Shown here: positions 20,358 through 58,197 of the stretch, in pieces
How positions within the stretch are numbered: position 1 is the first letter of the stretch
Layout: each line of letters begins with the position of its first letter
Origin: Candidatus Kapaibacterium sp.
GTDB lineage: Bacteria; Bacteroidota; Ignavibacteria; Palsa-1295
NCBI GenBank assembly: GCA_038229915.1
Contig: JBBRNY010000001.1
Span: 102,891 to 166,890, forward strand
Direction of reading: 5' to 3'
Length of the DNA: 64,000 nucleotides
Program-made: the position numbers and the translations under genes
Notes under the pieces: model-generated
What the model saw: the letters and a program-made list of their open reading frames with translations, nothing else
The model's database searches: none
Told to the model about the DNA's origin: nothing

Positions 20358-20438
20358 GCTGAAATTGGTTACATCCGGTACTGTCGAATCAAATTTTGAT
20401 TCTATCCGTTAGAAAAGACTCTTCACATAGCCAATAAT

Positions 20439-37149: not shown

Positions 37150-37154
37150 AAATA

Positions 37155-38156: not shown

Positions 38157-38320
38157 TGAGATAGCATTTCCCCAAAAAACACCACGAATATGACTAAAAT
38201 TGCCTAATTGGGGCTTCGGTCAAATCTATTTGCCCTACTGTCGGCTCCCGTAACCTTAACGGTTCTAATACGTTGTAACGAGCTACGGTAATAAGGGTTT
38301 CGGGAAGGTTTTGAATCCCT

Positions 38321-39706: not shown

Positions 39707-39724
39707 GCGCTCTGAGGAAAACAA

Positions 39725-40843
39725 TTGTCAATTAAGAAGATCATCATCGTAGTCGGAGCGCGCCCCAACTTTATGAAGGTAGCGCCAGTATTAGGCGCGT
39801 TAAAACGTCTTGCATCACAGCAGTTTCAAGCGATCTTGGTGCATACCGGGCAACACTATGATGCAAATATGTCAGACGTGTTTTTTAATGATCTCGAAAT
39901 GCCACATCCCGATACATTTCTCAATGTCGGAAGCGGCTCTCATGCCGAGCAAACCGCACGAGTAATGATCGAGATGGAGCGTTTGGTTGCCCAGGAGCAA
40001 CCCGATCTTGTGCTCGTAGCAGGAGATGTAAACTCGACACTTGCGGCGGCGATCGTCGCGGCGAAAGCCGGCGTAAAACTTGGGCATATCGAGTCGGGCT
40101 TACGATCGTTTGATCGTTCGATGCCCGAAGAAATTAATCGTATCGTTGCCGATGAATTTTCTGATTTTTGTTTTGTGACCGAGCCAAGCGGCTTAAAAAA
40201 TCTTGACCACGAAGGCATTGATAGCAACCGAGTGTTTTATGTGGGTAACACGATGATCGACTCCGTCGTGAAATATCGTAGTGCAGCGGAAGCAAAATTT
40301 CCTGCGCTTTCAGCGCGCTTAGGCATCGATAAAAAACAATACGTCTTAGTAACGCTTCACCGACCGAGTAACGTCGATGATAAAGCGAATCTTACATTGC
40401 TGGTCGATCTATTCGAAAAGATGTCAGCAACGGTAAAAAAAATAATTTTTCCGGTGCATCCGCGTACCCTCAAACGCATCGAAGAATTCGGACTTGGCGA
40501 GCGTGTTGCAAATAATACGGCACTGACACTGATCGAACCGCTTGGCTATCTTGATTTTCTTGCATTGCAAGATGGCGCGACCGTCGTACTGACCGACTCC
40601 GGTGGCGTGCAAGAAGAGACGACAGCGCTTGGTGTGCCGTGTATCACGCTTCGCGAAAACACCGAACGTCCGGTGACGATCGAAGTCGGTACTAATGAAA
40701 TGACCGGTCTTGACACCGAACGAATTTTAACGCTCACCGCATTAGCGATCAGCGGAGGTTGGAAACCTGCTTCGATCCCCGAGCTTTGGGACGGAAAAGC
40801 GAGCGAGCGGATCGTTTCGATATTAAAACAACATATCGTTTAA
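39725..40843 (+). CDS. wecB: UDP-N-acetylglucosamine 2-epimerase (non-hydrolysing)
   Basis: IIIVVGARPNFMKVAP, HTGQHYD, and HIESGLRSFDRSMPEEINR are classical WecB blocks. TTG start. Confidence 0.9.
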   Translation: MSIKKIIIVVGARPNFMKVAPVLGALKRLASQQFQAILVHTGQHYDANMSDVFFNDLEMPHPDTFLNVGSGSHAEQTARVMIEMERLVAQEQPDLVLVAGDVNSTLAAAIVAAKAGVKLGHIESGLRSFDRSMPEEINRIVADEFSDFCFVTEPSGLKNLDHEGIDSNRVFYVGNTMIDSVVKYRSAAEAKFPALSARLGIDKKQYVLVTLHRPSNVDDKANLTLLVDLFEKMSATVKKIIFPVHPRTLKRIEEFGLGERVANNTALTLIEPLGYLDFLALQDGATVVLTDSGGVQEETTALGVPCITLRENTERPVTIEVGTNEMTGLDTERILTLTALAISGGWKPASIPELWDGKASERIVSILKQHIV

Positions 40844-40852
40844 GGAACATTG

Positions 40853-42601: not shown

Positions 42602-42606
42602 TAACT

Positions 42607-44328: not shown

Positions 44329-44351
44329 ACAGCACGTTTTATTTTACTATT

Positions 44352-45551
44352 ATGACTGATCAATCTTCACCGAATAGTGTGCATCATCTTGAGCCAGCTC
44401 GCAAAGCATGGGTTGAAGCGATGGCACTGTTGCTTCGCCACAAGACGCTAATTTTGCTGACTTCGATCGCTGTAACGATCGTCACGGTAGTGTATATGTT
44501 TTTTGTTGCGAAAATTTGGTTTAAAGCAGAGGCGAATATTGTACCGGCAAGAAGGCAGGGTGGAATGTTTGACAATATTACTGCTGGTATTTCGAGCACG
44601 ATCAAAGATCTCGGTCTGACTCAGCTTGCAGGAAAAAATAAGAGTGATGGTGTCTATAGTCCGCTTGCTATTGTCGGCAGCAGAACAGTTGGCGAGAAAA
44701 TGGTGAAAGATTACGGTTTGATGAAAGTCTATGAAACCGAAAATATCGATGATGCCATAAAAGAATTTGGCGAGCATACTTCTGTTGCAGTTCTTGAAGA
44801 AGGGAACATTGGAGTATCATTTGAAGATACCGACCCCAAGCGTGCTGCCGAGGTTGCAAACCGATTAGTGGGGATGCTTAATGAAGTAAATTCAAAACTC
44901 GCGAACGACGAAGCAAAGTTCAACCGAACATATATTGAAGAACGATACAGCAATATGATCGCTGATCTTGATTCGTCAGAAAAAGCACTCGGTGTGTATC
45001 AGCGTAAGTATGGTGTCTATGAACTCAAGGCGCAAGCCGCCGCACAACTTTCGGTCTTGAGCACGCTCGAGCAACAGCGCTATCTCTCGGAGATACAACT
45101 TGCCAGCGCAGAACAACTCTACGGCACTCAGTCCCCCGAAGCAAACACCATGCGGACACAGATGGCTGAGCTTGGGAAAAAACTTGAAGATCTGCGTACC
45201 GGAATGGATCAAAATGCAAAAAGTTATTTTCCGGCTATGAATGTAATGCCCGACGTGGCATTAGATTATCTTCGCTTGACGCGCGAAGTCGAAATACAAT
45301 CAAAATTGAAAGCGTTTATGCTTCCGTCGTACGAGCAAGCGAAAATGGATGAAAACAAACAGTCTTTATCGTTCATTATGCTCGATTCGGCGCAGGTGCC
45401 TTTTAGAAAATCAAGACCAAAACGCTCGGTTGCGATCTTGATCGCTTTTTTTGGAAGTATAGTACTTACTTCGCTCACAGTGATCGTCGCGACTCGTGTT
45501 GGCGAAGCCCGCGAACGCTTCCGTCGTGATCGCAAATTGTTGGGAGTCTAA
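44352..45551 (+). CDS. Polysaccharide chain-length determinant protein (Wzz/PCP family, no kinase domain)
   Basis: N-terminal TM (LILLTSIAVTIVTVVYMFFVA), long coiled-coil periplasmic region, C-terminal TM (VAILIAFFGSIVLTSLTVIVA). Confidence 0.6.
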   Translation: MTDQSSPNSVHHLEPARKAWVEAMALLLRHKTLILLTSIAVTIVTVVYMFFVAKIWFKAEANIVPARRQGGMFDNITAGISSTIKDLGLTQLAGKNKSDGVYSPLAIVGSRTVGEKMVKDYGLMKVYETENIDDAIKEFGEHTSVAVLEEGNIGVSFEDTDPKRAAEVANRLVGMLNEVNSKLANDEAKFNRTYIEERYSNMIADLDSSEKALGVYQRKYGVYELKAQAAAQLSVLSTLEQQRYLSEIQLASAEQLYGTQSPEANTMRTQMAELGKKLEDLRTGMDQNAKSYFPAMNVMPDVALDYLRLTREVEIQSKLKAFMLPSYEQAKMDENKQSLSFIMLDSAQVPFRKSRPKRSVAILIAFFGSIVLTSLTVIVATRVGEARERFRRDRKLLGV

Positions 45552-45561
45552 AACCATAGTA

Positions 45562-46890
45562 ATGAACCTACTCTCGAGATTGATCTTTCGTTCTTCGAGA
45601 TCGCAGTTTCTGTGGTGGGGTTTTATTGTTGCACTTGTTATTCGTATCGCGATCGTTATTTCATTTGGGAATGCAGAGCATCCACAAATGTATGAACATG
45701 GCGATATAGCAAATAACTTGTATCAGGGCAATGGCTATACCATGCACTGGCCTTATGAATCGCTCGATAGTGCGCGTCGCGCTGTGATGAGCAAGCCTCC
45801 CAACCATGAAGGGGCGTTTATTCCGCCACTCAACCCCTATCTTATTTACGTGTCGTATCTATTGTTTGGTCAGACATCACTGGCCATTACTGCTCTGATG
45901 TTGTTCTATGCAATATGTAGCGCGTTAGTAATACCTATTGTGTATCAATCATCGAGATTGTTATCATCGGAGACTGGTGCGCGTTGGTGTGCGATGATTG
46001 CGTCACTTTTTGTTCCTGCGGCGTATTCGGTGACAACATTTTCAGGTTCACCACTATATCATTTGTTCGGAGCGTTAATAGTATTATTCGCGATTCGAGT
46101 AATACAATTCTGTCAATTCAGTGACGTTATTTGGCTTGGCGTATGTTGCGGAATAATGACATTACTTCGAAGTGAGTTTTTCCTTCTCAGCTTTCTTCTG
46201 ATTGCGCTTGTCGTTCTCTATTCTCGTCAGAAATATTCATTTTCACAAAAATTTAAATCGCTTGCTATTTCGGCAGGGGTGTGTCTGTTAGTTATTACTC
46301 CCTGGACGGTTCGCAATTATAAATTGTTTAACCGTTTTGTGCCGGTGCTTAGCCATCCGTGGTTTGAAATTTGGCGCGGGAATAATGCTGTGGTTGCCTC
46401 TGGCTCATTATTTTCAGCCGAGCCTTATGTCTGGGTTAGCCCTGTGCAATTTCCGGAGATCATAAAAAAAATGGATGCTCTTCCGTATGATCGTTTTTTT
46501 GAGGTCGGCGTGAATGATATGTTTCAGGCATCTGCTTTAGAGTTTATGAAAGCCAATCCGGGGCAAGTACTATATCTAAGCACAAAAAAAATATTCTATC
46601 TTCTAACAATAGATATGGCTGACCATTCAGTCCGAAACCCGATCTATATACTTTCGATGCTCGTCGTCATACCCCTGACGCTATTCGGACTTTACAAAAT
46701 ACTTACATCAAAAGAAAGACAAGTAGAAGGAATGCTATTTCTTTTGATATTTGGATATTATCTCGCGATCACCGCCGCAACCTATTCGTTGCCGAGGTAT
46801 CAGATTTATCTTTTTGTGCTACTGCTACCATTAGTAGGGGTGTCGCTTTCATCTAAAATTGAAGAGCAAGCTCTTAAATCTCGTGTATAA
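45562..46890 (+). CDS. GT-C fold membrane glycosyltransferase (ArnT/PMT-like, GT39/GT83 family)
   Basis: More than 10 TM helices. TM1 is followed by a periplasmic loop rich in E/D/aromatic residues (GNAEHPQMYEHGDIANNLYQGNGY). Confidence 0.55.
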   Translation: MNLLSRLIFRSSRSQFLWWGFIVALVIRIAIVISFGNAEHPQMYEHGDIANNLYQGNGYTMHWPYESLDSARRAVMSKPPNHEGAFIPPLNPYLIYVSYLLFGQTSLAITALMLFYAICSALVIPIVYQSSRLLSSETGARWCAMIASLFVPAAYSVTTFSGSPLYHLFGALIVLFAIRVIQFCQFSDVIWLGVCCGIMTLLRSEFFLLSFLLIALVVLYSRQKYSFSQKFKSLAISAGVCLLVITPWTVRNYKLFNRFVPVLSHPWFEIWRGNNAVVASGSLFSAEPYVWVSPVQFPEIIKKMDALPYDRFFEVGVNDMFQASALEFMKANPGQVLYLSTKKIFYLLTIDMADHSVRNPIYILSMLVVIPLTLFGLYKILTSKERQVEGMLFLLIFGYYLAITAATYSLPRYQIYLFVLLLPLVGVSLSSKIEEQALKSRV

Positions 46891-48508
46891 AGTACGTCCG
46901 ATCATAAAGTATTGTTTTTTTGCAATAACAACGTTGTTGTTATTGACGATGCTTGCTTTTCCGATGGGCAACGACCAAGCAATTTTTGAAGTTTGTGGGG
47001 CGCTGATTGCCAGAAAGTCTGCCATCCCCTTTCGTGATTTTCTTGAGATGAAGCAACCGTTGATATTTTATATATATTCTTGGTCAACAATATTGTTTGG
47101 CAGACATGAGTATTCAATACGAATACTGGATGTAGTATATCATATTATTTCATTGGGGTTGTTTTATAAAATAATTTCTAAAATTTATAACAATGAATTC
47201 ATAGGCTTGTTAACGATATTTATCTACACTATCTATTTTCTTAGTGGAGGGTATTGGAGCACCGCCCAAACGGAGTCATTTGCTTTGCTTCCTCAACTTG
47301 GGATACTCTATGCAGTTGTCGGATCATTCAAAGCCACGGATAAGCGTAAAGTAATAGGGTATGCGCTACTCGCCGGAGTTTGTACTATTTTAATAATATC
47401 TATTAAAGTAACTCTGGGTTTGATTGCATTGCCGGTAATTTTTTCTACAGTATTGTTTTTTCGTAAGCTAGCGCTTCGAAGTTCAACGTTTTTGGTCCCG
47501 TATATTTTGTCATCCATCTTTTTTTTATCCATAGAGGTATATTGGCTTTGGGCCTCGAATGCACTCCAAAATTTAATTTTGACATTCCAGTGGTTGGCAA
47601 ATTACGCTTCAACCTTTTCTCCGCTATTTAGCACAATAACGTTTAAGGATATATATTATAAGCTTGTCCCAGAACAATTTTTGGTAACTTTTACTCTTTC
47701 ACTGATCGCTCTTGCTTGCTATGCAGTGTGTACTGAAAAACTTCGGTTCATTACCACTAAAATTACGACTCGAGAATTCTTCCGAATTTTTTGTTTACTA
47801 TGTGTTGGATTTGGACTGGTCGGCATACTGATTGAGCGAAAAGCTTTTACCTATCATTATACTCGAATTACCTGGTGCATTGTACCCTTTGTTGCCGAAG
47901 GAATATTTACACTTTGGAATAAACGCAGCACATTCAGTGAGTGGTTTAGCCAATGGCATGGATTACAACGATTTGTGTTGAGTGTGTTTTTCGGTTTAGC
48001 AGTTGTTGTATTTTTCTTATGGTCGCCCTTGCCGAGAATAATAGATCAATCCTTTGGGTGGTCATTTATTGCAATCAACGGCGATGCAAATGCTCGTGCA
48101 AAGAAGATCGAATCAAGCAAGTACGATCTTGTAGATGCGATCTCCCTTGCCCAACATTACGCTCCTTCGCTCACCCCTACAGATCATATATTTCTTTGGG
48201 GAAACACCGTACAATTATATTATGAGTTTGATCAGTTACCAACGACACTCTGTGTTGCGAATCCACAATTGATCTCGCCTTGGACGCCAAAGGTTTGGAT
48301 CGACACGTTGGTTTCGCAATTGAAGAACGCTCCACCAACTTATTTTTTGTGTGAGCTGAAGGATGAGAGACCATTAATTACTGGAACACCAGATGAATCC
48401 TATGCAGCATTGTTGAAGATTTCACCATTGAGAGAGTTCCTCTTCTCACACTATGCGTTGGTTGATAGTAATGCGCATTTCAAAATGTTTAAGTACATCC
48501 GCTCGTGA
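46859..48508 (+). CDS. Second GT-C fold membrane glycosyltransferase (ArnT/PMT-like)
   Basis: Polytopic, with N-terminal TM1 then a PMGNDQAIFEV loop. The start is uncertain (TTG at 46859, GTG at 46883 or ATG at 46949). Overlaps the upstream gene. Confidence 0.5.
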   Translation: MKSKLLNLVYKVRPIIKYCFFAITTLLLLTMLAFPMGNDQAIFEVCGALIARKSAIPFRDFLEMKQPLIFYIYSWSTILFGRHEYSIRILDVVYHIISLGLFYKIISKIYNNEFIGLLTIFIYTIYFLSGGYWSTAQTESFALLPQLGILYAVVGSFKATDKRKVIGYALLAGVCTILIISIKVTLGLIALPVIFSTVLFFRKLALRSSTFLVPYILSSIFFLSIEVYWLWASNALQNLILTFQWLANYASTFSPLFSTITFKDIYYKLVPEQFLVTFTLSLIALACYAVCTEKLRFITTKITTREFFRIFCLLCVGFGLVGILIERKAFTYHYTRITWCIVPFVAEGIFTLWNKRSTFSEWFSQWHGLQRFVLSVFFGLAVVVFFLWSPLPRIIDQSFGWSFIAINGDANARAKKIESSKYDLVDAISLAQHYAPSLTPTDHIFLWGNTVQLYYEFDQLPTTLCVANPQLISPWTPKVWIDTLVSQLKNAPPTYFLCELKDERPLITGTPDESYAALLKISPLREFLFSHYALVDSNAHFKMFKYIRS

Positions 48509-49983
48509 ATACACTATTTGAATATAGTGGATTTCCCTACTCACAACTTTCTAAGAAGGTGCAGTGGGTTGTCGCGATTGCGATAGTCCTGCTTGCATTT
48601 GTCAGCCAGCTCTTATTCGGTATTGAATATTTTATTATTGCTGGAATTGCGGCAATACTGTGTACTGTATTTTTTCGAAATGAATTCGTTCTTCTTGCAT
48701 CTTACATTTTGGTATTGATTGTTGTCGGGCTTCACGAACGTGAAGAAGCGATGAGTGTAGGCCCGATCGAAATACTCACGGCCTTCATTATGATCGCGGT
48801 ATTGCTGTATGTGGTCTACAAGAAATTAATTTACAAGAGAGATCTTTCTTTTCATCCATCATTATTGTTGATTATTGGATATGTCTTCTGGGCAGCTACC
48901 AGTAGCATCCTCAGTATTGCAAACGAAGATAACACGTTCAATTATGCATTTCGAGAGTTTCTTTCCTTTTCTTCACTGGTAGTATTGCCAGTGCTTATCC
49001 GAGATGTACGAAAAAAATATGATTCATTTGATAAGTATATGTTTTATCTAATGATATTTGGTTGGCTCCTTATTTTAGTGGTTTCTGTACAACATATACG
49101 ATCAACGGTTGCCCAGGCTACATATCTATATGAAACAGGGTTTGCCAGATATGATGTAATGAACAGTTCGGTATTGCTATTACTGTTTCTTGGAATGCTA
49201 ATGCTTGAAGTTAGTTGGAAAAAGCGGATACCATTTTTTATAGGAATGGTGATAGCTGTGGGCGGCATCCTTATTTCATTTGCCAGAACAAGTTGGGTTG
49301 GGATCGTTTTTAGTATTCCTCTGCTAATCTTGGTCTCACCTCGAATGCAAAGAAAAAGAGGGTTTCGTGCAATCCTACTGATGGGAGGAGCCGGATTATT
49401 GGCTTTTGGTATTGTATATTTTTCCTTCCCGTTAATAAAAGCCATAGTTCAATTTTCATTTCAACACTTCACCTCATCCTCAAAAGTTGGTACTGATCCT
49501 TCTTTGGTGAATCGCTACATTGAGTGGGGATATGTATTTAAGCAGATTTTCCAAACCCCGATTACGGGAGTTGGTTTTGGCGGAAGATTTACACTCTATA
49601 ATTGGCTTGGTGGCGTGGTCTATCGAACCGGATACACGCATAACGGAATGATGGTCTTGTTGCTCAAAGGTGGGATTGTTGGTTTGTTCTTGGTGATGAC
49701 AGCATTCATTTCTTTTTTCGTGCTTGGTATTCGCGTAATGATATCCAAAGTGTTGACCGATAAAGAACGAATGATCGCACGGGTTGGGGTAATTTCCATC
49801 GTGTTTATGTTTTTTCACATGATGACATTAGGATTATTCATTCATCGTGAGGTTATGTGGTATCTTGGATTGATCTGGGGGTACTTCATTGCATTTTATG
49901 AGCAAATACAGTCTCATAAGAATGTGCCCAATGCACTCGCTGAGACGGCAATGTTGCTTCCGCCACATGAAAGTTCAAAGTAA
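48505..49983 (+). CDS. O-antigen ligase/polymerase family membrane protein (Wzy-like)
   Basis: About 12 TM helices, with the Wzy_C-like segment (FARTSWVGIVFSIPLLIL) and a large periplasmic loop. Confidence 0.55.
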   Translation: MNTLFEYSGFPYSQLSKKVQWVVAIAIVLLAFVSQLLFGIEYFIIAGIAAILCTVFFRNEFVLLASYILVLIVVGLHEREEAMSVGPIEILTAFIMIAVLLYVVYKKLIYKRDLSFHPSLLLIIGYVFWAATSSILSIANEDNTFNYAFREFLSFSSLVVLPVLIRDVRKKYDSFDKYMFYLMIFGWLLILVVSVQHIRSTVAQATYLYETGFARYDVMNSSVLLLLFLGMLMLEVSWKKRIPFFIGMVIAVGGILISFARTSWVGIVFSIPLLILVSPRMQRKRGFRAILLMGGAGLLAFGIVYFSFPLIKAIVQFSFQHFTSSSKVGTDPSLVNRYIEWGYVFKQIFQTPITGVGFGGRFTLYNWLGGVVYRTGYTHNGMMVLLLKGGIVGLFLVMTAFISFFVLGIRVMISKVLTDKERMIARVGVISIVFMFFHMMTLGLFIHREVMWYLGLIWGYFIAFYEQIQSHKNVPNALAETAMLLPPHESSK

Positions 49984-51496
49984 AGCAAATAGCTCGGGTT
50001 CTTCCCTTCGTCGCACGCTTGCGGGTGGTTTGTTGCTTACGGTTTTGGCGAATGCCTTTTTATATATCGGGCATGTGGTTATCGCGCGTCGGTTGAGTCG
50101 GGAAGAATATGCGATTTTTACAGTAGTCGTTAGTTTTGTATCGCTGATGGCTTTATTTGCCGATCTTGGTCTGACGTTGTTGTTTGTCCGAAAATTTGCT
50201 GAAGCCGATGAGCGCACCCGTGCCGGTGAACATGAGCGCCGTGGCGAACTGCTTGGATCGATGTTGGTCTTACGGATCGGACTTGCCATACTTGTCTCAG
50301 GCGCCGTCTTTGTGATCGCTCCGTTATTAGGATACCCGAACGAGACACAAAAGCTGATGCACATTATGTTGCTGACACTTTTTATTTCTTCTCGGTTGAT
50401 GGTCGTGCGCTCAGTAGGTGAAGCATTTATCAGGGGGCATAACAAATATCATTTCATAGCACTCTTTGCACTGATCGATGCGGCTGTATTCTCATTGGCA
50501 TTGTTTTTTTATGGTGGTGGGAAAACCCTTGACCTCGAAGGCGCAGTATGGATCTATAGTTTATGTCATATCCCCGGTTTCTTGTTGTTGATCTGGCTGA
50601 TCGGTTCATCTGCAAAAGAAATAGGTTTTCGTTTGAGTGTTCATTTCGGAATGTTGTGGGGAATGATACGTGAAGGGCTGCCATTAATTTTTAGTACAGC
50701 ATTTCTTACCATTCATAATTTTGCGGATGCATTGCTTCTTGATAAATTGAGTACACCTCAACAAGTGTCAGCCTATGGAGCAGGCATTAGAATTTTGACA
50801 GCGGTCATTTTCTTGCCAACAGTATTCTCTGCAGTGATCGGTCCTCAAGTCACCCAAGCTATCGTCAGAGGTAATTCAGAACATATCCGAGCTATTGTTG
50901 ACCGAGCATTGCGGCTCTTGTTAGTAACCGCTTTGATAATAGGTCTTTCGCTTACCTGTGCGTCAAACACTATTATCGGTATATTATTTGGTGGTGATAA
51001 ATATGGCGATGCGGCACCGATCGTAATAATGTTTGGCTGGACGTTCTTTCCCATTGTGTTTGCGACGTTTTTATCGGAGCTCGCTATCGCAGAAGGAAAA
51101 CTTTGGATCTCTACACTCTATATGTGTGTGATAATGATCGTTTCAGTCTCGATGGATTTTGTATTGATACCATCATTGGGCGCCTTTGGGGCAGCTACTT
51201 CGAAGTGTATCGCAGTCACGGTTGGTTCGTTTGTACTTCTTATTGCATCAAGACAAATGCACGTCATCGAAGCACGCCGATTTCTTGTGTTCTTGTTAAA
51301 GTGTTGTGTTGCTCTCGGCGTAGCACTATTGGCATATTTTGGTATTCGATCTGCTGTTGAACTCAATGAAATTCTAATGTTAATAGTCGTTCTTGCCGTA
51401 TTCTCGGGTGTGGTGATGGCTTCACGAGCAATAGGATGGGCAGAGGTTCAAAATTTCTTCCAACCTAAACTGGTCAATGATCAGGGTAACGGATGA
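49967..51496 (+). CDS. wzx: Oligosaccharide flippase (Wzx, MOP superfamily)
   Basis: Polytopic ~500 aa with Polysacc_synt-type N-terminal region. In-frame ATG at 49967. Confidence 0.6.
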   Translation: MKVQSKANSSGSSLRRTLAGGLLLTVLANAFLYIGHVVIARRLSREEYAIFTVVVSFVSLMALFADLGLTLLFVRKFAEADERTRAGEHERRGELLGSMLVLRIGLAILVSGAVFVIAPLLGYPNETQKLMHIMLLTLFISSRLMVVRSVGEAFIRGHNKYHFIALFALIDAAVFSLALFFYGGGKTLDLEGAVWIYSLCHIPGFLLLIWLIGSSAKEIGFRLSVHFGMLWGMIREGLPLIFSTAFLTIHNFADALLLDKLSTPQQVSAYGAGIRILTAVIFLPTVFSAVIGPQVTQAIVRGNSEHIRAIVDRALRLLLVTALIIGLSLTCASNTIIGILFGGDKYGDAAPIVIMFGWTFFPIVFATFLSELAIAEGKLWISTLYMCVIMIVSVSMDFVLIPSLGAFGAATSKCIAVTVGSFVLLIASRQMHVIEARRFLVFLLKCCVALGVALLAYFGIRSAVELNEILMLIVVLAVFSGVVMASRAIGWAEVQNFFQPKLVNDQGNG

Positions 51497-52470
51497 ATAG
51501 ATTTGAACAGCTACATATAGACCCATGGTCACCAGAACGGTGGGCGGGGGCAAGCTCTCCATCGGCCCATACTCTTCCTCTGGTAACGATCGGCATTCTA
51601 AATTTTAATAGATGCGATGAATTGCGAAGAACACTCGATGCCGTTACAACAGCAATAGATTATCCATCAATAGAAATTATCGTTGTTGATAATGCTTCGA
51701 CCGATGGAAGCGTTGAGATGGTTGAAAAATTTTTCCCGAACGTTCGAGTTATTGTAATGCCCGAGAATATTGCCACTGCGGCAAGGAATGAATTTTATCG
51801 TGAGGCAAAGGGTAAATATATTTTTTCGTATGACGATGATTCATTCCCGGCAACACCGGCTACCGTCCTCGATGTCGTTCAAATGTTAGAAGAGCGACCC
51901 GAAATTGATGTAGCATCGTTCTATTGTTATCAGCCACTCACATCATTTGTCGAAAGCGGTGGTCTCGAAAAATTCAGCTTTTCGGGTAACCCTCAACATG
52001 GGTATGAGGGTCTTTTTTTTGTTGAAGGCGGTATGTGTGTTCGTCGTGATTCTTTCAAGCGTATTAGTGGCTATGACAAAGAATTTATTTGGGGTGCAGA
52101 AGGTGCAGATCTCGTGCTGCAATTCTACCAGCTCGGAATGAAAACTCTCTATTATCCTGCTTGCGCCACATTACATATGAAATCGCAGCAGAATCGAAAT
52201 ATTGTTCAGAATGTCAAGTTCTTCACTAGAAATTATATTTGGACCATAGGAAAGCATTTCCCGATCGTCATTGCGATCCCATTAGTAGTCTTATATATTC
52301 TCCGCCGTATGGTTGCGATTCTCCTACATCCTTCTTTTGCTTCGGGATATATTCAAGGTATTGTTGATGGGGTTATCGGTTTTGCTAAACAACGCAAGAA
52401 AACCGAAAAATTAACCTTGCGACAAGTTATTGGTTTGAAGCGTTGGTATCTTTTTCTTCTTCGCTGGTAA
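51493..52470 (+). CDS. Glycosyltransferase family 2
   Basis: VTIGILNFNR...VVDNASTDGS, DDD-type motif and C-terminal hydrophobic segment. Confidence 0.75.
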   Translation: MNRFEQLHIDPWSPERWAGASSPSAHTLPLVTIGILNFNRCDELRRTLDAVTTAIDYPSIEIIVVDNASTDGSVEMVEKFFPNVRVIVMPENIATAARNEFYREAKGKYIFSYDDDSFPATPATVLDVVQMLEERPEIDVASFYCYQPLTSFVESGGLEKFSFSGNPQHGYEGLFFVEGGMCVRRDSFKRISGYDKEFIWGAEGADLVLQFYQLGMKTLYYPACATLHMKSQQNRNIVQNVKFFTRNYIWTIGKHFPIVIAIPLVVLYILRRMVAILLHPSFASGYIQGIVDGVIGFAKQRKKTEKLTLRQVIGLKRWYLFLLRW

Positions 52471-52474
52471 CGTC

Positions 52475-53677
52475 TTGCGTATTCTTCAACTTGCCCCCCG
52501 GTTTCCTTTTCCGCTGATCGATGGCGGTGCGATCGGTATTTTTAAACCGACCGAAGCCATTGCTCGGCTCGGACACGAAATTACATTCGTTACTTTTCCT
52601 GATACTGACCAGCAGGTCACAAATGCAGGACTCGAACAACTTCGGTCGTTTGCTCGGGTTGAATTAGTATCGAAGCCGTTGCCATCGAGAAATGCAACGT
52701 TACTTCGGACAATGTTCAAAGGCGCCTACCCGATCGAGCGTCGTATGATGCCAGAAGTGTATGGGTTGCTTGAGCGATTGTTACAAGAATCGAAATATGA
52801 CATCGTTCATATCGACGCCTGTCACATGGGGAAGTATGGGATGTGGCTCAAGGAGAAGTATGGACTTCCGATCGTACTTCGGCAACATAATTTTGAGACG
52901 CAGATCTATCGCCGCTTTGCATCGACCACTTCGAACCCTATTGCGAAATTCGTAGCTTCGATCCATGCAAAAAGGATGCTTGTCGAAGAGACGAAGATCA
53001 TCGCTGGGCATGACCGGGTGATCGCTATCAGCACTGAAGACGAAGCTGAGATGGCTCGATATGTACCAAATGCGCACTACCGCGTTATTCCGGCAGGTGT
53101 TGATACGGATTATTTTAAGCCGCAACAGATTGAAAACAAAGGAAATAGTGTCCTTTGGGTCGGTGGTATGGATTGGGAGCCAAACCGTGATGCCGTTACT
53201 TTTTTTGCGAAGGATATTCTTCCGCTTATTGTTGCAAAGCACCCAGATATAGTCTTTGACATTGTGGGTTCAGGTACTAAGGAGCTTTCAGGAATAGAGG
53301 CAGAATCGGGAGGCAGAATCAGACTTCACGGTCGTGTCCCGGATATTCGACCATATCTTGCCTCGGCAAGTGTTATGGTTTGTCCGCTTCGTGTGGGCGG
53401 TGGGATGCGATTGAAACTTCTTGACTTTTTTGCCGCTGGTAAAGCAGTCGTTTCGACCCATATCGGAGCCGAAGGCAATCTCGGTATTGATAACGAGCAT
53501 ATTTTGCTTCGCGATGAACCGAAGGCTTTTGCCAGTGCAATACTACAGTTATTAGACGATCAGGATTTTGCTCAGCAGATCGGTCGTAATGCGAGAATGC
53601 TCGCAGAAAAGGAATACTCGTGGCAACGGATCGCTCGTGATTTTGTCGGAGTCTATGATGAATTGTTGGGACGTTAA
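52475..53677 (+). CDS. Glycosyltransferase family 4 (GT-B, RfaB-like)
   Basis: N-terminal Glyco_trans_4 and C-terminal Glycos_transf_1 pattern (EGNLGIDNEH...). Confidence 0.8.
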   Translation: MRILQLAPRFPFPLIDGGAIGIFKPTEAIARLGHEITFVTFPDTDQQVTNAGLEQLRSFARVELVSKPLPSRNATLLRTMFKGAYPIERRMMPEVYGLLERLLQESKYDIVHIDACHMGKYGMWLKEKYGLPIVLRQHNFETQIYRRFASTTSNPIAKFVASIHAKRMLVEETKIIAGHDRVIAISTEDEAEMARYVPNAHYRVIPAGVDTDYFKPQQIENKGNSVLWVGGMDWEPNRDAVTFFAKDILPLIVAKHPDIVFDIVGSGTKELSGIEAESGGRIRLHGRVPDIRPYLASASVMVCPLRVGGGMRLKLLDFFAAGKAVVSTHIGAEGNLGIDNEHILLRDEPKAFASAILQLLDDQDFAQQIGRNARMLAEKEYSWQRIARDFVGVYDELLGR

Positions 53678-53679
53678 CA

Positions 53680-54858
53680 ATGATATTGCTCAATGTTGCT
53701 ATCATATTTTGTGCGCTCGTCGTTGGTTATAGCTACTTGCTCTATCCGATGCTTATTCGTGTGCTCGCAAAAAAATATCCTGAGCCATCTATTATAGACG
53801 AGAACTACCTCCCAAGTATTTCTATTATTCTTGCCGTGCACAACGAAGAGCGCGTCATCGAAAGCTGTCTGGCTTCGTTGTTAGCATTGGATTATCCTAA
53901 AGAAAATATTGAGATCCTTATTGGATCTGATGGTTCAAGCGATAGGACCAATGAGATACTCCTGCGATATCAGAGTCAATATCCATATATCAAAGCATTT
54001 TGTTTTTCGGCACAACGAGGAAAGATCGCAGTGCTTAATGATCTCATTACGACCACAACCTCCGAGATACTATTTTGTCTCGATGCTGATATTGAGCTTA
54101 CTCCGAATACGTTACGCGTTCAAGTGCGCCATTTCGCTGATACAAAGATCGGTGCAGTGGCCGGATTATATAAGATCGAAAGCCCTGAAAGTTCTACGCT
54201 TTCACAATCGGAAGTAGAATATGCATCGCTTGATCAGAAAATTAGAACAGCAGAAAGTATTTATCATTCAAGTGTCGGTTTAGGCGGATGCAATTATACA
54301 TTGCGGCGCTCATTGTGGAAGCCATTTCCTGATAACCTCATTCATGATGATCTGTTTGTGTTGCTGTCAGTTCTCGACCAAGGATTTCGTGTTTTTTTCG
54401 AGCCCCTTTCGATTGCTTCCGAGTTATTTGCGCGGAACATTCGAGAAGAATTTCGTCGTAAATCACGATCGGCATCGCGGGGTTTTCATACCTTTTCGTT
54501 TTTTCCGGCGTTGATGTTTCCACGTTCAGGTAAGAGCGCACTACTCTTATGGTCACATAAATTACTTCGTTGGCTTAGCCCGCTATTTGTGATCATTGCT
54601 ATTGTGCTTGCATTGGTTGGATATAATGCCACTTCTGACCTATTTTATCAGATCATTCTCTTAGGAGTTGTCTTCGCGGCTATTATTCTGCTTGTCGGGT
54701 ACGTTGCTGAACGGCGTGGGATCGCGATACCGTTGGTGCGACAATTATCGTGGTTAATTGTTATGAATGCGGCGTATGTTGCCGGTGCGATGAAATATCT
54801 GACCAAAAGCGATCATCAGGTCTGGATGTCTTCGTCACGACCGGAGTTAGAAAAATAA
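53680..54858 (+). CDS. Membrane-anchored glycosyltransferase family 2
   Basis: N-terminal TM, then SIILAVHNEE....LDYP...IEILIGSDGSSD GT2 core; C-terminal TM helices. Confidence 0.7.
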   Translation: MILLNVAIIFCALVVGYSYLLYPMLIRVLAKKYPEPSIIDENYLPSISIILAVHNEERVIESCLASLLALDYPKENIEILIGSDGSSDRTNEILLRYQSQYPYIKAFCFSAQRGKIAVLNDLITTTTSEILFCLDADIELTPNTLRVQVRHFADTKIGAVAGLYKIESPESSTLSQSEVEYASLDQKIRTAESIYHSSVGLGGCNYTLRRSLWKPFPDNLIHDDLFVLLSVLDQGFRVFFEPLSIASELFARNIREEFRRKSRSASRGFHTFSFFPALMFPRSGKSALLLWSHKLLRWLSPLFVIIAIVLALVGYNATSDLFYQIILLGVVFAAIILLVGYVAERRGIAIPLVRQLSWLIVMNAAYVAGAMKYLTKSDHQVWMSSSRPELEK

Positions 54859-54868
54859 TATTGTTTAT

Positions 54869-56302
54869 ATGAGCAGAAGAAAAGAACTCATCAGTCTGTT
54901 GCTTGGCGATCTACTCGCCATCACCGGCTCGTGGTTCTTATTCTATTGGCTGCGTTTTTTTTCCGGGTTATTTATCGTGCGTCCTGGGTTGGAATTTGAT
55001 GTTCCGCACGTACTTCAAAGTTCGATCTTTATTTATTTTTTCTGGTTTGTTGCATTTTTATTTTTTGGTCTTTATCGGTCGTGGTACGTTCGCCCGATCT
55101 TTGATGAGATCGTCACGGTTTTAAAAACAGAAGCATTCGGAACAGTCGTGTTTATGATCGTGGTACTTTGGGATCCACTAACACCGAACGAAATCTCCAC
55201 ACCGACTCGCAATGATCCGAGGTTATTAGGTTTGTTATACTTCGGGTGTATTACCGTTTTAACAGTTTCTGTTCGGTTGCTTGTTCGATATACCCAACGG
55301 AGATTGCTTGAAGCAGGTATTGGTCTCCGTCCAGCAATTATTGTCGGCGAGGGTATAAAAGCCCAGCAACTGGCGCACAATCTTTCTCGGGCAAAACGTC
55401 TCGGCTATGAGGTCTTGGGCTACGTGAGCGCGAACGGAATTGATGATACGCAACCTGTTCAGGAATTACAGCGGCTTGGTACATTTGCAACGCTTGAGCA
55501 AGTGATCAGCGAAAAAAACATTAAGGAAGTATTGATCGCATTAGATTCGGGAGAGCATCATCGTCTTCTCGATCTTCTCGGTAGGCTTTCGGCACAGAAT
55601 GTCGGGATGAAGATCGTCCCCGATCTCTATGATATTATCTCGGGGCAAGCACGCACGAGAGAGATCTATGGCTTTCCGCTGATCGATATTAATCCCGAGA
55701 TCATGCGCCCTTGGGAGGAAGTGACCAAGCGTATCATGGATATTGTGATCAGTGCTGTTATTATTGTTGTTGGGTTTCCTGTTTGGGTTCTTGTTGCACT
55801 TGCGGTCGGGCTTACCTCAAAGGGTCCGATCTTTTATACGCAAGAACGTGTCGGAAAAAATGGCGAGGTATTTGCGATCTATAAATTTCGTTCGATGACC
55901 ATTGATGCCGAAAAAGATGGGCTACCTCAATGGGCACAAAAAAATGACCCCCGGGTGACAACACTCGGAAAATTTTTGCGTAAGACACATCTTGACGAGG
56001 TACCACAGTTTTGGAATGTACTCAGTGGGGATATGTCATTAGTGGGTCCAAGACCGGAACGTGAGTATTTTGTACTTCAACTGACAAAAGAATTACCATA
56101 TTATCGTCGCCGCCTCAAAGTTCGTCCCGGTATCACGGGGCTCTATCAGGCAATGGTGCATAAGTATGACGAAAATATGGACGATGTGCGAAACAAATTA
56201 AAGCATGATCTGCTCTATATCGAGTCGATGTCGTTTCGGCTCGATATAAAAATTCTATTTCGTACGGCATATATGATGATCAAAGGGAAAGGACAAGCAT
56301 AA
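54869..56302 (+). CDS. Undecaprenyl-phosphate sugar phosphotransferase (WbaP/EpsE-type polyprenyl glycosylphosphotransferase)
   Basis: Four or five N-terminal TM helices, a CoA-binding-like linker, and the C-terminal catalytic domain (KGPIFYTQERVGKNGEVFAIYKFRSM...DEVPQFWNVLSGDMSLVGPRP). Confidence 0.85.
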   Translation: MSRRKELISLLLGDLLAITGSWFLFYWLRFFSGLFIVRPGLEFDVPHVLQSSIFIYFFWFVAFLFFGLYRSWYVRPIFDEIVTVLKTEAFGTVVFMIVVLWDPLTPNEISTPTRNDPRLLGLLYFGCITVLTVSVRLLVRYTQRRLLEAGIGLRPAIIVGEGIKAQQLAHNLSRAKRLGYEVLGYVSANGIDDTQPVQELQRLGTFATLEQVISEKNIKEVLIALDSGEHHRLLDLLGRLSAQNVGMKIVPDLYDIISGQARTREIYGFPLIDINPEIMRPWEEVTKRIMDIVISAVIIVVGFPVWVLVALAVGLTSKGPIFYTQERVGKNGEVFAIYKFRSMTIDAEKDGLPQWAQKNDPRVTTLGKFLRKTHLDEVPQFWNVLSGDMSLVGPRPEREYFVLQLTKELPYYRRRLKVRPGITGLYQAMVHKYDENMDDVRNKLKHDLLYIESMSFRLDIKILFRTAYMMIKGKGQA

Positions 56303-56305
56303 GGG

Positions 56306-57457
56306 ATGAGCACTATAATAGATCAACAAATAGTAAGACCCGTACACATGGTTGATGTGATCGGTCAATATAAACGCTATCAAAGTGAAATTGATGAAGC
56401 GATGATGTGTGTCGTCAAGAGCGGTGCGTATATTAACGGACCCGCTGTTAAACAATTTGAGAGAAATATGGAATCGTATCTTGGTGTGAAGCATGCTATT
56501 GCTTGCGCCTCGGGTACCGATGCATTACAAGTTGCGCTGATGGCGATCGGTATTAAACCGGGTGATGAGATCATTACATCTCCGTTTACTTTTGTTGCAA
56601 CAACCGAGACGATCGCATTGCTTGGCGGAATTCCGGTCTATGTTGATATTGATTCCGAGACATTTAATATCGATGTTGAGCGCATAGCCGAACGGATCAC
56701 ACCTCGTACCAAAGCGATATTACCGATCCATATTTTCGGGCAGCCAGCAAATATGACTCGAATTATTGAGATCGCAAAAGCACACAACATTTATGTGATC
56801 GAAGATGCTGCACAAGCGGTTGGTGCAAAATGGGATAACCAAAATGCTTGTACGTTTGGAGACATTAGCTGCATCTCGTTCTATCCTTCAAAAAATCTTG
56901 GTGCTTTTGGCGACGCTGGGATGATCACCAGTGACAATGACGAACTCGCCGCAATTATTCGTTCGATCTGTAATCATGGCGCATCGGTCACCTACCATCA
57001 CGATAGGCTTGGAGTGAATTCGCGTTTAGATTCGATACAGGCGACGATCCTTGACGTGAAATTAAAATATCTTGATGAGTGGAATGCTCGCCGCCGCGAA
57101 GTGGCTGATCTCTATTCATCGCTGTTCGCTCCGTATGCTGATCTGATCACGACTCCGGTTACTGACCCGAGCGCAACGCATATTTGGCATCAATATTCAA
57201 TTCTCCTTGGGACCAATCGTGACGCGGTGATGGCGGCACTCAAAGTAAAAGGTATTCCAACGAGTATTTATTATCCGATCCCGCTTCATTTACAGCCGGC
57301 ATATTCATCATACGGTTCGAAGCAAGGGGATTATCCTCATTCTGAAAACACTTCTGCACATATCCTCGCACTGCCGATGCACTCGGAGCTCAGTGATGAC
57401 GATGTGCATTATATTGCAGATCATATCATTCAAACGGTCAACGAACTATGTCGCTAA
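56306..57457 (+). CDS. DegT/DnrJ/EryC1/StrS-family PLP-dependent sugar aminotransferase
   Basis: Typical blocks (AIACASGTDALQVALMA, ITSPFTFVATTE, SFYPSKNLGAFGDAG). Confidence 0.85.
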   Translation: MSTIIDQQIVRPVHMVDVIGQYKRYQSEIDEAMMCVVKSGAYINGPAVKQFERNMESYLGVKHAIACASGTDALQVALMAIGIKPGDEIITSPFTFVATTETIALLGGIPVYVDIDSETFNIDVERIAERITPRTKAILPIHIFGQPANMTRIIEIAKAHNIYVIEDAAQAVGAKWDNQNACTFGDISCISFYPSKNLGAFGDAGMITSDNDELAAIIRSICNHGASVTYHHDRLGVNSRLDSIQATILDVKLKYLDEWNARRREVADLYSSLFAPYADLITTPVTDPSATHIWHQYSILLGTNRDAVMAALKVKGIPTSIYYPIPLHLQPAYSSYGSKQGDYPHSENTSAHILALPMHSELSDDDVHYIADHIIQTVNELCR

Positions 57458-58197
57458 CACGAGCTCTGATCATCATTCCAACCTACAACGAGATCGACAA
57501 CGTCGAGAATATCGTTCGTGCAGTGTTGGAACAAGAAAAAAATACACCTGATGTACAACTCTCTGTCCTGATCGTCGATGATAATTCGCCCGACGGGACT
57601 GCTGCTGTTGTAAAAAAACTCCAGGAAGATCCGGCACTCGGACCGGAGCGAGTACACTTACTTTCACGCCCCGGAAAGATGGGACTTGGGACAGCGTATG
57701 TTGAAGGTTTTCGATATGGCTTGTCTCATACGTTCGATTATATTTTTGAAATGGATGCCGACTTCTCACACGACCCCGAGGAGATCCCAAATTTTTTACG
57801 CGAAATAAAATCGTATGATGTCGTACTCGGCTCGAGATACATTACCGGTGCCAATGTCGCTAATTGGCCGCTGAGAAGATTACTACTTTCGTATTATGCC
57901 AATAAATATGCACGTATTGTTACAGGACTGAAAGTCTATGATACGACGGGCGGCTTCAAGTGCTTTCGTCGTGAAGTGCTCGAGTCTATTGATCTTAATG
58001 GTATTCATTCGAACGGATATGCCTTTCAGATCGAAATGAATTTTAGGGCTTGGCGCAAAAAATTTCGCATTAAAGAAATTCCGATCGTTTTTGTTGATCG
58101 CCGCGCCGGTACCAGCAAGATGAACAAGTCTATCGTTCGTGAAGCAGTATTGTTGGTCTGGAAGCTAAAACTGAAAACGATCTCCGGTGAATTATAA
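57448..58197 (+). CDS. Polyprenol-monophosphate sugar synthase (DPM1/ArnC-like GT2, soluble form)
   Basis: IIIPTYNE.DN, VDDNSPDGT and GSRY motifs of the dolichyl/polyprenyl-phosphate mannose/glucose synthase family; 249 aa without TM. Confidence 0.75.
   Translation: MSLTRALIIIPTYNEIDNVENIVRAVLEQEKNTPDVQLSVLIVDDNSPDGTAAVVKKLQEDPALGPERVHLLSRPGKMGLGTAYVEGFRYGLSHTFDYIFEMDADFSHDPEEIPNFLREIKSYDVVLGSRYITGANVANWPLRRLLLSYYANKYARIVTGLKVYDTTGGFKCFRREVLESIDLNGIHSNGYAFQIEMNFRAWRKKFRIKEIPIVFVDRRAGTSKMNKSIVREAVLLVWKLKLKTISGEL

Follow-up and report, generated by a model that had tools for sequence, protein, structure and literature searches.

Lipid-carrier glycosylation systems and the Kapaibacterium locus

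The Gtr, CsbB/YfhO, Ppm1/PMT, Arn and pentofuranose systems are known systems for extracytoplasmic glycosylation in the manner of a GT2 synthase and a GT-C glycosyltransferase. The system described here joins them. It is encoded in a stretch of 64,000 nucleotides from Candidatus Kapaibacterium sp. (contig JBBRNY010000001.1; this whole stretch is referred to as the window). Two adjacent membrane proteins, GT-C1 and GT-C2, and a small GT2, here called the synthase, are encoded in one Wzx/Wzy-type locus for an envelope polysaccharide. The system is set apart from the known ones by a DPM1-type synthase without transmembrane helices, by two unrelated minimal GT-C enzymes, by the lack of a dedicated flippase gene in the window, and by a locus that is conserved in the phylum and not strain-variable. 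An earlier note on this DNA had proposed that the three proteins act together with a DegT-family aminotransferase in a manner parallel to Arn and Gtr. The four genes and the standard Wzx/Wzy parts were recovered by Pfam and NCBIfam profile searches of the open reading frames (ORFs) of the window, with positions that equal the proposed ones or differ by a few codons.

The three-component concept of Gtr-type systems is summarized in PMC11127046. In Salmonella and Shigella, these consist of the flippase GtrA, the undecaprenyl-phosphate glucose synthase GtrB and a GtrC-type GT-C. The likeness to the Kapaibacterium locus is a GT2 of the class of GtrB and dolichyl-phosphate mannose synthase (DPMS), combined with a GT-C that is presumed to modify a Wzx/Wzy glycan in the periplasm. 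In contrast to Gtr, the window has no GtrA-like gene, and the synthase has no transmembrane anchor and is much closer to dolichyl-phosphate mannose (Dol-P-Man) synthase than to GtrB (103 versus 27.5 bits). The genes are chromosomal core genes within the locus, not a phage-borne cassette, and two unrelated GT-C enzymes are present. The parallel to Gtr drawn in the earlier note holds for the pairing of a GT2 synthase with a GT-C; a GtrA-family flippase and a membrane-anchored GtrB have no counterpart in the window.

The closest relatives of the synthase are the archaeal and eukaryotic DPMS (the Pyrococcus furiosus enzyme, PfDPMS, and human DPM1). The residues that bind the lipid phosphate and seven of the eight that contact GDP-mannose are kept, and the synthase is without a transmembrane helix like human DPM1. 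Actinobacterial Ppm1 pairs with PMT-type or polyprenyl-phosphate-mannose-dependent GT-C mannosyltransferases. The likeness to such systems extends to the partner enzymes, which belong to the PMT_2 family. However, neither a DPM2/DPM3 nor an Lnt-like partner was recognized, and the downstream neighbor is a GT2 fused to a degenerate module of a phosphoglycosyl transferase (PGT) (in the following, the fusion). Also, the acceptor is here presumed to be a polysaccharide, not a protein, and two residues of PfDPMS are replaced (Q93 by S, K178 by Q).

The CsbB/GtcA/YfhO systems, which act on teichoic acids of Firmicutes, combine a GT2 synthase and a GT-C for the extracytoplasmic glycosylation of an envelope polymer (PMC7389260). 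The likeness goes beyond this combination, as orthologs of the synthase are translationally coupled to YfhO proteins in Gemmatimonadota, Zixibacteria and others (see below). The Kapaibacterium enzymes are, however, of PMT_2 type (442 and ~541 residues) and not YfhO proteins (~800 residues), and a GtcA-like flippase is absent. Pentofuranose systems are exemplified by Citrobacter youngae O1/O2, where a GT136 GT-C, a MATE flippase and a polyprenyl-phosphoribose synthase are encoded in the O-antigen locus (PMC11127046). They set a precedent for a GT-C that is encoded inside a polysaccharide locus and acts after polymerization. In these systems, however, the synthase is not a GT2 but a UbiA-like phosphoribosyltransferase that uses phosphoribosyl pyrophosphate, the GT-C is from another family, and a dedicated MATE flippase exists. 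The Arn system is considered below, together with the aminotransferase.

The GT-C enzymes, the synthase and their gene neighborhoods

Based on their PMT_2 scores, AlphaFold models and Foldseek matches, GT-C1 and GT-C2 are genuine GT-C enzymes. This agrees with the earlier note, which had described two adjacent, overlapping ArnT/PMT-like proteins; both score above the Pfam gathering threshold for PMT_2, and a GT-C fold is modeled for both. All Foldseek matches to the PDB at E<=1e-3 are GT-C enzymes for either protein (ALG9 among them), with neither transporters nor WaaL in the list, so that a transporter or an O-antigen ligase, the outcomes that would have spoken against the assignment, did not emerge. 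An identity as WaaL-type ligase was rejected (WaaL is not among the structural matches and the Pfam family is PMT_2), as was an identity as oligosaccharyltransferase (there is no STT3/PglB-type C-terminal domain and no WWD motif, and the Pfam family is PMT_2). A recent duplication was likewise rejected. The hhalign probability of 27% indicates that GT-C1 and GT-C2 represent distinct, remotely related families. They had been described as paralogs that suggest two acceptor sites or two decorations. Two different GT-C enzymes are indeed present, but they do not share a recent origin, and the two positions of transfer are presumed.

The model of GT-C1, built from an alignment of 65 homologs, has a pLDDT (predicted local distance difference test) of 93.9, is all-helical and lacks a sizeable soluble or periplasmic domain. 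Foldseek matches in the PDB are AglB, ArnT, PglB, STT3, AftB, DPY19 and PMT. In an alignment of 65 GT-C1 sequences, the first transmembrane helix is directly followed by an invariant Glu-45 (motif YEHG). The loop that carries this residue would be extracytoplasmic, judging from the arginine-rich N-terminus and helix 13-35 of the model. Further invariant residues are R203-S204-E205, R251-N252 and E269/W271/G273/N275 (E269-x-W-x-G-x-N). In relatives, the GT-C1 gene is located next to those for Wzz and Wzy_C or between them, also where the full locus is missing, and GT-C1 is the core GT-C of the locus.

For GT-C2, the alignment has only 8 homologs and the model reaches a pLDDT of 69.9. Matches in the PDB are STT3, ArnT, AglB, PglB and AftA. 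D39-Q40 is invariant in the 8 GT-C2 sequences and is again located after the first transmembrane helix. The earlier note had suggested a search for a catalytic Asp/Glu in the first loop; the conserved acidic residues at this place are E45 in GT-C1 and D39 in GT-C2. A search of 1.84 billion proteins yields 56 cluster representatives of the GT-C2 family at E<=1e-30, a number that rises to 571 at E<=1e-10. The start codon is probably GTG 46883, which results in 541 residues as in the homologs, and the gene then overlaps the stop codon of GT-C1 by 8 nt (GTGTATAA). The public gene call (P0081) has 519 residues and starts at Met-31 (46859-46951 region). A start at Met-31 would remove the first transmembrane helix. 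As all homologs retain this helix, the database model is probably truncated. The locus of one GT-C1 homolog (P0015) is otherwise syntenic but devoid of GT-C2, with a methyltransferase and a 520-aa unknown protein encoded instead. This makes GT-C1 a core and GT-C2 an accessory enzyme.

The small GT2 is assigned to the class of polyprenyl-phosphate hexose synthases, which is well supported by sequence comparison. Its best match among solved structures is the Dol-P-Man synthase from P. furiosus (1.4e-28, 103 bits, residues 6-240), followed by ArnC (2.6e-09) and GtrB (1.6e-05, 27.5 bits). All of its leading NCBIfam matches are polyprenyl-phosphate-sugar synthases (AglJ, dolichyl-phosphate-hexose transferase, PgfS, PpgS, ArnC). 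Close homologs are named "polyprenol monophosphomannose synthase" in databases. The functional residues of PfDPMS (PMC5526996) were mapped by alignment, and their invariance was judged over 25 family members. The donor motif D103-A-D105-F-S-H108 corresponds to 89-DADLQH-94 of PfDPMS (with D105 equivalent to D91) and is invariant in the family. The lipid-phosphate triad, which is "conserved in bona fide DPMSs" (PMC5526996), is kept and invariant as well (R130/R144/S148 for Arg117/Arg131/Ser135). Seven of the eight GDP-mannose contacts are retained: E15 (Glu12), D45 (the guanine-binding Asp39), D103 (Asp89), H108 (His94), F193 (Phe177), R218 (Arg202) and K224 (Lys208), all of them invariant in the family, the exception being Lys178, which is Q194. 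Both interface helices of PfDPMS are also kept. The protein has no predicted hydrophobic segment. The catalytic domain of PfDPMS is still membrane-targeted and fully active without the transmembrane part, and human DPM1 (type II) also lacks a transmembrane helix (PMC5526996).

The call as DPM1/ArnC-like synthase in the earlier note is therefore upheld by the best structural match and the retained triad. An ordinary polymer-forming GT2 had been named as the contrary case, but the closest characterized relatives are all lipid-phosphate sugar synthases. From the same residues, the transferred sugar is most likely mannose, donated by GDP-mannose. Given this DPMS signature, a neutral hexose is likelier than the (amino)sugar on polyprenyl phosphate that had been predicted. 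Ignavibacteriota, Gemmatimonadota, Zixibacteria, Eisenbacteria and Bacteroidales all have orthologs, which are 50-62% identical to the synthase. A literature search for a characterized ortholog from Bacteroidota returned nothing functional.

We surveyed 80 genome loci around orthologs of the synthase. In 22 of these, a gene for a YfhO-family GT-C (~800 aa) ends 3-7 nt inside the start of the synthase gene (Table 1). The lineages concerned are Gemmatimonadota, Zixibacteria, Eisenbacteria, Goldbacteria and some Ignavibacteriales. We consider this strong independent evidence that the ortholog group of the synthase feeds GT-C enzymes. Homologs of GT-C1 can also be found next to a small GT2. In one locus (L089), the GT-C1 homolog is directly preceded by a 240-aa GT2 with best PDB matches to DPMS, ArnC and GtrB; in another (L092), an ortholog of this GT2 is flanked by two genes of the GT-C1 family. 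In a rearranged locus (L091), both GT-C enzymes are encoded within 9 kb of the synthase. Two further loci (L088, L090) have a compact trio of GT-C1, Wzz (GNVR) and Wzy_C beside a gene for a PBP2-type transpeptidase, far from glycosyltransferase clusters. In Ignavibacteriota-type genomes, the block consists of PGT, (DegT), synthase, fusion, AccA and thioesterase, and in Bacteroidales the synthase gene stands alone. Taken together, the neighborhoods support the idea of a lipid-carrier donor used by a GT-C, and the partnership assumed in the earlier note is backed by the YfhO overlaps and by L089 and L092 from other lineages. The pairing of synthase and GT-C in the Kapaibacterium locus is not exclusive.

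Two side observations were made in this survey. In Gram-negative phyla, the genes for YfhO and a DPM1-like synthase seem to form a two-gene cassette for glycosylation that is widespread and, apparently, has not been described before. Further, Ignavibacteriota-type loci code for a second flippase of the MOP/Wzx family ~4-5 kb downstream of the synthase (Table 1). In analogy to the MATE flippase of the Citrobacter system, it is a candidate flippase for the lipid-linked monosaccharide. No counterpart was seen in the window, which ends in a PriA-like gene.

The genes of the locus differ in their conservation. GT-C1, GT-C2 and Wzy_C evolve fastest (37-48% identity to relatives versus 53-83% elsewhere in the locus), with the Wzy_C protein ranked as the most divergent (37-42%). 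GC contents are 0.418 for GT-C1, 0.386 for GT-C2 and 0.395 for Wzy_C, versus 0.443 for Wzx and 0.456 for the window. GT-C2 and Wzy_C are the lowest of the locus, and GT-C1 ties with the GT2 at 51493 for the next lowest value. The uneven identities and the low GC content point to a conserved locus for a "common" glycan with a variable periplasmic core, made up of GT-C1, GT-C2 and Wzy_C. Their joint divergence fits enzymes that recognize one shared, variable periplasmic glycan. The region 45562-49983 resembles an exchangeable, serotype-like center inside an otherwise conserved locus.

Proposed mechanism and alternative explanations

From the family membership of the encoded proteins, we propose that the WbaP-type PGT and three transferases (GT2, GT4 and GT2) would build a repeat unit on undecaprenyl diphosphate (Und-PP). 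A ManNAcA-type uronic acid would be provided by the dehydrogenase and the 2-epimerase, and an amino sugar by the WbpE-like DegT protein. The unit would be flipped by Wzx, polymerized or ligated by the Wzy_C protein with Wzz, and exported by the Wza-like protein. At the inner leaflet, the synthase would load a hexose onto polyprenyl phosphate, most likely mannose from GDP-mannose, where the enzyme class is supported and the sugar is deduced. A putative flippase would move the lipid-linked sugar outward. GT-C1 and, where present, GT-C2 would then glycosylate the lipid-linked or nascent glycan in the periplasm, presumably at two different positions. That the GT-C enzymes add a polyprenyl-phosphate-linked hexose, probably mannose, to the glycan of this locus in the periplasm has, in our estimate, an even chance of being correct.

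Several points weigh against this proposal. The acceptor is wholly inferred. The synthase stays below every NCBIfam equivalog cut-off (AglJ, 58 of 325 bits; dolichyl-phosphate-hexose transferase, 55.6 of 375; PpgS, 48.8 of 370), and two contact residues of PfDPMS are altered (Q93 to S107, K178 to Q194). It is encoded by a gene that the FCB group (Fibrobacteres-Chlorobi-Bacteroidetes) keeps for housekeeping and that is not specific to this locus; >8000 homologs were found at E<1e-20. The conserved neighbors of this gene are here the PGT, the fusion and AccA, with the GT-C genes 9-11 kb away, and in several Ignavibacteriota loci with the PGT-synthase-fusion block, no PMT_2 gene was found within 10 kb. 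L088 and L090 have no synthase nearby, and the small GT2 that partners GT-C1 homologs in L089 and L092 is a different ortholog (28-31% identity to the synthase). Finally, the window has no flippase of the GtrA or ArnE/F type; only known genes were found among its ORFs of at least 60 aa with at least three hydrophobic segments.

The aminotransferase is of the DegT family, as claimed in the earlier note, but is closer to WbpE than to ArnB. Against the PDB, it scores 317 bits with WbpE (a 3-aminotransferase), 274 with DesV, 273 with QdtB and 165-176 with ArnB, and it fails the ArnB model of NCBIfam (222.5 bits, cut-off 631). A literature search on PDB entries 7B0D, 8E75 and 8E77, made to identify its two best structural relatives, returned nothing relevant. 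In ~10 related Ignavibacteriota-type loci, the PGT is directly followed by the synthase, without a DegT gene in between, so that a conserved triad of GT-C, DPM synthase and DegT is not seen upon genome comparison. Because of this absence, we attribute DegT, like the dehydrogenase and the 2-epimerase, to the sugar supply of the repeat unit rather than to the lipid-carrier module. It probably supplies the amino sugar of the repeat unit. In the Wbp pathway for UDP-GlcNAc3NAcA/ManNAc3NAcA, these three proteins could correspond to WbpE, the WbpA dehydrogenase and the WbpI epimerase. The window yielded no WbpB-like 3-oxidase (the gene at 20439 has a GFO domain, but one that matches inositol dehydrogenases) and no WbpD-like acetyltransferase, as the only hexapeptide-repeat protein is LpxA.

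Ugd and a UDP-GlcA decarboxylase had been reported 18 kb upstream and were seen as further Arn-pathway activities. The genes and the distance were confirmed: Ugd (at 17865) and a short-chain dehydrogenase/reductase (at 19219) are encoded ~18-20 kb upstream of the start of the locus and 26-28 kb upstream of the GT-C genes. The Arn activity was not: with a score of 355 bits against human UXS1 and of 83 bits against ArnA, the latter protein is a true UDP-xylose synthase (UXS). UXS would reduce the 4-keto intermediate that is required by ArnB. The intervening genes, on both strands, are unrelated and code for type IX secretion system (T9SS) cargo, TerC, hemerythrin, biotin ligase, pantothenate kinase, aspartokinase, NadC and RfaE kinase. 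Neither Ugd nor UXS shows linkage to the locus, and neither belongs to the lipid-carrier module.

The likeness to Arn, which attaches 4-amino-4-deoxy-L-arabinose to lipid A, consists of the order of aminotransferase and GT2 and of a PMT_2-family GT-C. As in arnB-arnC, the aminotransferase gene comes first; DegT and the synthase gene share 10 nt, and their adjacency is kept in Kapabacteria-like relatives. On this basis, the DegT product might be loaded by the GT2 onto undecaprenyl phosphate and be transferred by a GT-C to lipid A or the polysaccharide, with Ugd and the decarboxylase feeding the route. We regard this as extremely improbable. DegT is WbpE-like and absent from the ~10 related loci, the GT2 has DPMS signatures and reaches only 44.6 bits with the ArnC model (cut-off 529), and GT-C2 has a weak match to the ArnT model (16.2 bits, cut-off 567). 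UXS is no ArnA-type oxidase and is unlinked. Equivalents of ArnA and ArnD were not found, with no formyltransferase and no deformylase/deacetylase domain among the scanned ORFs of the window, and there is also no small multi-transmembrane ORF of the ArnE/F or GtrA kind. Every equivalog test (ArnB, ArnC, ArnT) failed. On all these grounds, the Arn-like reading was rejected and the parallel to ArnB/ArnC/ArnT drawn in the earlier note is not supported.

The other explanations differ in which element of the proposal they replace. The GT-C enzymes might use the polyprenyl-phosphate sugar but transfer it to envelope proteins (PMT-like O-mannosylation), to lipid A/core or to another glycolipid, with the position in the operon reflecting co-expression only. 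Protein O-mannosyltransferases and ArnT belong to PMT_2, the weak NCBIfam match of GT-C2 is to ArnT, the GT-C1-Wzz-Wzy_C trio of L088 and L090 is apart from glycosyltransferase clusters and beside a PBP2-type gene, and genes for lipopolysaccharide (LPS) biosynthesis (LpxA, LpxC-FabZ, RfaE kinase) are found within the window. Nevertheless, we consider another acceptor rather unlikely, because their genes strictly keep their place between those for Wzz and Wzy_C, the GT-C enzymes diverge fast together with Wzy_C, GT-C1 has neither the MIR nor the periplasmic domains of PMTs, and the ArnT equivalog score is only 16 bits (of 567). A different objection concerns the partnership itself. The synthase might supply GT-C enzymes encoded elsewhere or work with the adjacent fusion, and GT-C1 and GT-C2 might use some other lipid-linked donor. 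Indeed, the PGT-synthase-fusion-AccA block is kept without nearby GT-C genes in many Ignavibacteriota, the synthase is solitary in Bacteroidales, and GT-C1 homologs elsewhere pair with a different small GT2. That the proteins are not partners is nonetheless unlikely in our view, given that the window encodes no other GT2 of the synthase class and that, by gene order, the synthase gene is co-transcribed with the GT-C genes in all close relatives. Also, GT-C enzymes can be promiscuous for the available donor, as discussed in PMC11127046.

In a further alternative, the 249-aa GT2 would work in the cytoplasm like any ordinary transferase, with the Und-PP-linked unit as its substrate, and the GT-C enzymes would polymerize or ligate from Und-PP-oligosaccharide in the manner of an oligosaccharyltransferase. 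Oligosaccharyltransferases are among the top Foldseek matches of both GT-C enzymes, and the linkage of GT-C1 with Wzz and Wzy_C is tight. This is countered by the characterized relatives of the GT2, all of which are lipid-monophosphate sugar synthases, by its retained lipid-phosphate triad, and by GT-C enzymes that are from PMT_2 and have neither a WWD motif nor the periplasmic domain found at the C-terminus of STT3/PglB; it appears very unlikely. Somewhat less remote, though still doubtful, is a variant that starts from the persistence of the GT-C1/Wzz/Wzy_C trio where the rest of the locus is absent. GT-C1 might not be an optional decorating enzyme but, with Wzz and Wzy_C, an indispensable third component of one machine. 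The product of the locus might be a phylum-wide "common" envelope glycan, perhaps the anchor of T9SS cargo. A sugar of the main chain or of the linkage would then be inserted in the periplasm from polyprenyl-phosphate mannose. The Wbp-dependent A-LPS of Porphyromonas is the model for such a cargo-anchoring glycan (PMC7468200, PMC4031482).

Locus layout and significance

The region comprises the variable center and the conserved 3' end of one Wzx/Wzy-type envelope-polysaccharide operon, which is conserved in the Kapabacteria/Ignavibacteriota lineage. Between 38321 and 62402, 19 genes are encoded on the forward strand. As the spacing between neighbors is only -127 to +34 nt, they form one operon-like block, in which the Wzx/Wzy operon itself spans 38321-60256. 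The closest named homologs are from Candidatus Kapabacteria/Kapaibacterium, Ignavibacteriota and metagenome-assembled genomes labeled "Bacteroidota bacterium", and the whole gene order is repeated in relatives (L001-L005). The Wzx/Wzy assembly set is complete in this one cluster, with the initiating PGT, Wzx, the Wzy_C protein, the polysaccharide co-polymerase (Wzz) and the outer-membrane polysaccharide export (OPX) protein (Wza). A promoter/terminator scan of 37000-56900 was not above shuffled controls (32 versus 39.7; 25 versus 20.0), the consensus being probably unsuited to the phylum. An Rfam scan of the window gave no match.

Table 1. Features of the polysaccharide locus, of other regions of the window, and of related loci (identity: amino acid identity to relatives).
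Feature	Coordinates	Strand	Support	Identity
Nucleotide-sugar 6-dehydrogenase, UDP-ManNAc/UDP-GlcNAc dehydrogenase-like (first gene of the locus)	38321..39706	+	three UDPG_MGDP_dh domains	79-83%
Non-hydrolyzing UDP-GlcNAc 2-epimerase, WecB/WbpI type	39725..40843	+	Epimerase_2 343.8 bits
Outer-membrane polysaccharide export protein, OPX/Wza-like	40850..42601	+	Poly_export and three SLBB stretches
Conserved 573-aa protein, signal-peptide-like N-terminus, C-terminal "...GAKALF"	42607..44328	+	conserved in relatives
Wzz/GNVR polysaccharide co-polymerase without kinase domain	44202..45551	+	Wzz 26.0 bits, GNVR 25.0 bits
GT-C1, minimal 442-aa PMT_2-type GT-C	45562..46890	+	PMT_2 36.7 bits (gathering score 26.1)	45-48%
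GT-C2, second PMT_2-type GT-C, C-terminal alpha/beta domain of ~110 aa	46859..48508	+	PMT_2 30.3 bits (gathering score 26.1)	37-39%
Wzy_C-family membrane protein, polymerase or ligase	48505..49983	+	Wzy_C 50.4 bits; 13 hydrophobic segments	37-42%
Wzx flippase, MOP family	49889..51496	+	Polysacc_synt 63.6 bits; MurJ and MatE matches	53-58%
Cytoplasmic GT2, repeat-unit assembly	51493..52470	+	Glycos_transf_2 87.3 bits
GT4, repeat-unit assembly	52475..53677	+	Glyco_trans_1_4 93.2 bits, Glyco_transf_4 54.9 bits
Membrane-anchored GT2, distantly PgaC/IcaA-like	53680..54858	+	Glycos_transf_2 88.8 bits
Initiating PGT, WbaP/WcaJ-type polyprenyl-phosphate hexose-1-phosphate transferase	54869..56302	+	Bac_transf 224.5 bits and CoA_binding_3	67-73%
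DegT-family nucleotide-sugar aminotransferase, WbpE-like	56306..57457	+	DegT_DnrJ_EryC1 409 bits	70-77%
DPM1-type polyprenyl-phosphate (probably mannose) synthase, 249 aa, no transmembrane helices	57448..58197	+	Glycos_transf_2 109.7 bits	81-82%
GT2 fused to WbaP-like membrane/CoA_binding_3 module, 674 aa, degenerate PGT catalytic domain	58232..60256	+
LPS genes (LpxA, LpxC-FabZ fusion)	1099-3344
Ugd, UXS and 720-aa fusion protein	17865-22601
Set with T9SS cargo (see text)	26-988; 22652-25600; 28125-31580
RfaE domain I heptose-7-phosphate kinase	37155-38156	-	370 bits (cut-off passed)
YfhO-family genes overlapping the synthase gene (19 further loci)	L011 7533-9989; L016 7630-9999; L044 7527-10004
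Fusion homologs	L004 8754-10760; L005 10766-12781; L006 10749-12791; L007 10748-12790
GT-C1/Wzz(GNVR)/Wzy_C trio	L088 10001-13918; L090 10001-13933
Second MOP/Wzx-family flippase downstream of the synthase	L008 12482-13990; L017 15156-16655; L056 14169-15656

Several assignments from Table 1 require comment. The first gene of the locus reaches 385.7 bits with TIGR03026; its closest equivalog is UDP-ManNAc dehydrogenase (252 bits, under the cut-off). The adjacent epimerase passes TIGR00236 (wecB; 324.9 bits, cut-off 210), and the PGT passes the cut-off of TIGR03025 (426 bits). The membrane-anchored GT2 stays under that of TIGR03937 (93.5 bits). Judging from homologs, the true start codons are probably 44352 for Wzz (398-399 aa in homologs) and ~49967 for Wzx. 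The 573-aa protein has no Pfam or NCBIfam match. Its gene always directly follows that for the Wza-like protein in relatives (also in L001-L003, L008, L032 and L047), and the protein may form a beta-barrel in the outer membrane as a partner of OPX.

The fusion combines a GT2 domain (83 bits) with a WbaP-like module (transmembrane helices, CoA_binding_3 with 39 bits, a re-entrant helix) and a partial, sub-threshold Bac_transf match (22 bits). When aligned to the PGT, KFRSM is replaced by GIRST and LDEVPQ by IDQMNL. The order synthase, fusion, AccA is kept in ~20 loci and is always found in Ignavibacteriota-type genomes. The fusion may be a pseudo-enzyme scaffold that presents the Und-PP-linked sugar to the GT2, or a membrane anchor for the synthase. 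Downstream of it, genes for SIMPL, AccA and thioesterase close the 19-gene block.

Elsewhere in the window, Ugd and UXS are followed by a 720-aa fusion protein (at 20439) of a Zn-alcohol-dehydrogenase-like domain and a GFO/IDH/MocA oxidoreductase, the latter closest to inositol dehydrogenases. Ugd and a true UDP-xylose synthase imply that xylose occurs in some glycan of the organism. Two proteins have T9SS C-terminal sorting domains, and one of these two also has a choice-of-anchor D domain; a 1151-aa ORF from the same set has no family match. The LPS genes are listed in Table 1. The RfaE kinase gene is divergent from the polysaccharide locus and is not adjacent to it in relatives.

If the proposal is true, an uncultured FCB lineage would set the final structure of a conserved surface polysaccharide partly outside the cytoplasm, with two unrelated minimal GT-C enzymes whose donor comes from a DPM1-type synthase that closely resembles its eukaryotic and archaeal counterparts. 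This would add a Bacteroidota-related case to the lipid-carrier systems for "post-assembly" glycosylation, but no new principle. A testable function would be provided for the very large uncharacterized family of "polyprenol monophosphomannose synthases" from Bacteroidota, Ignavibacteriota, Gemmatimonadota and Zixibacteria, and for two uncharacterized GT-C families.

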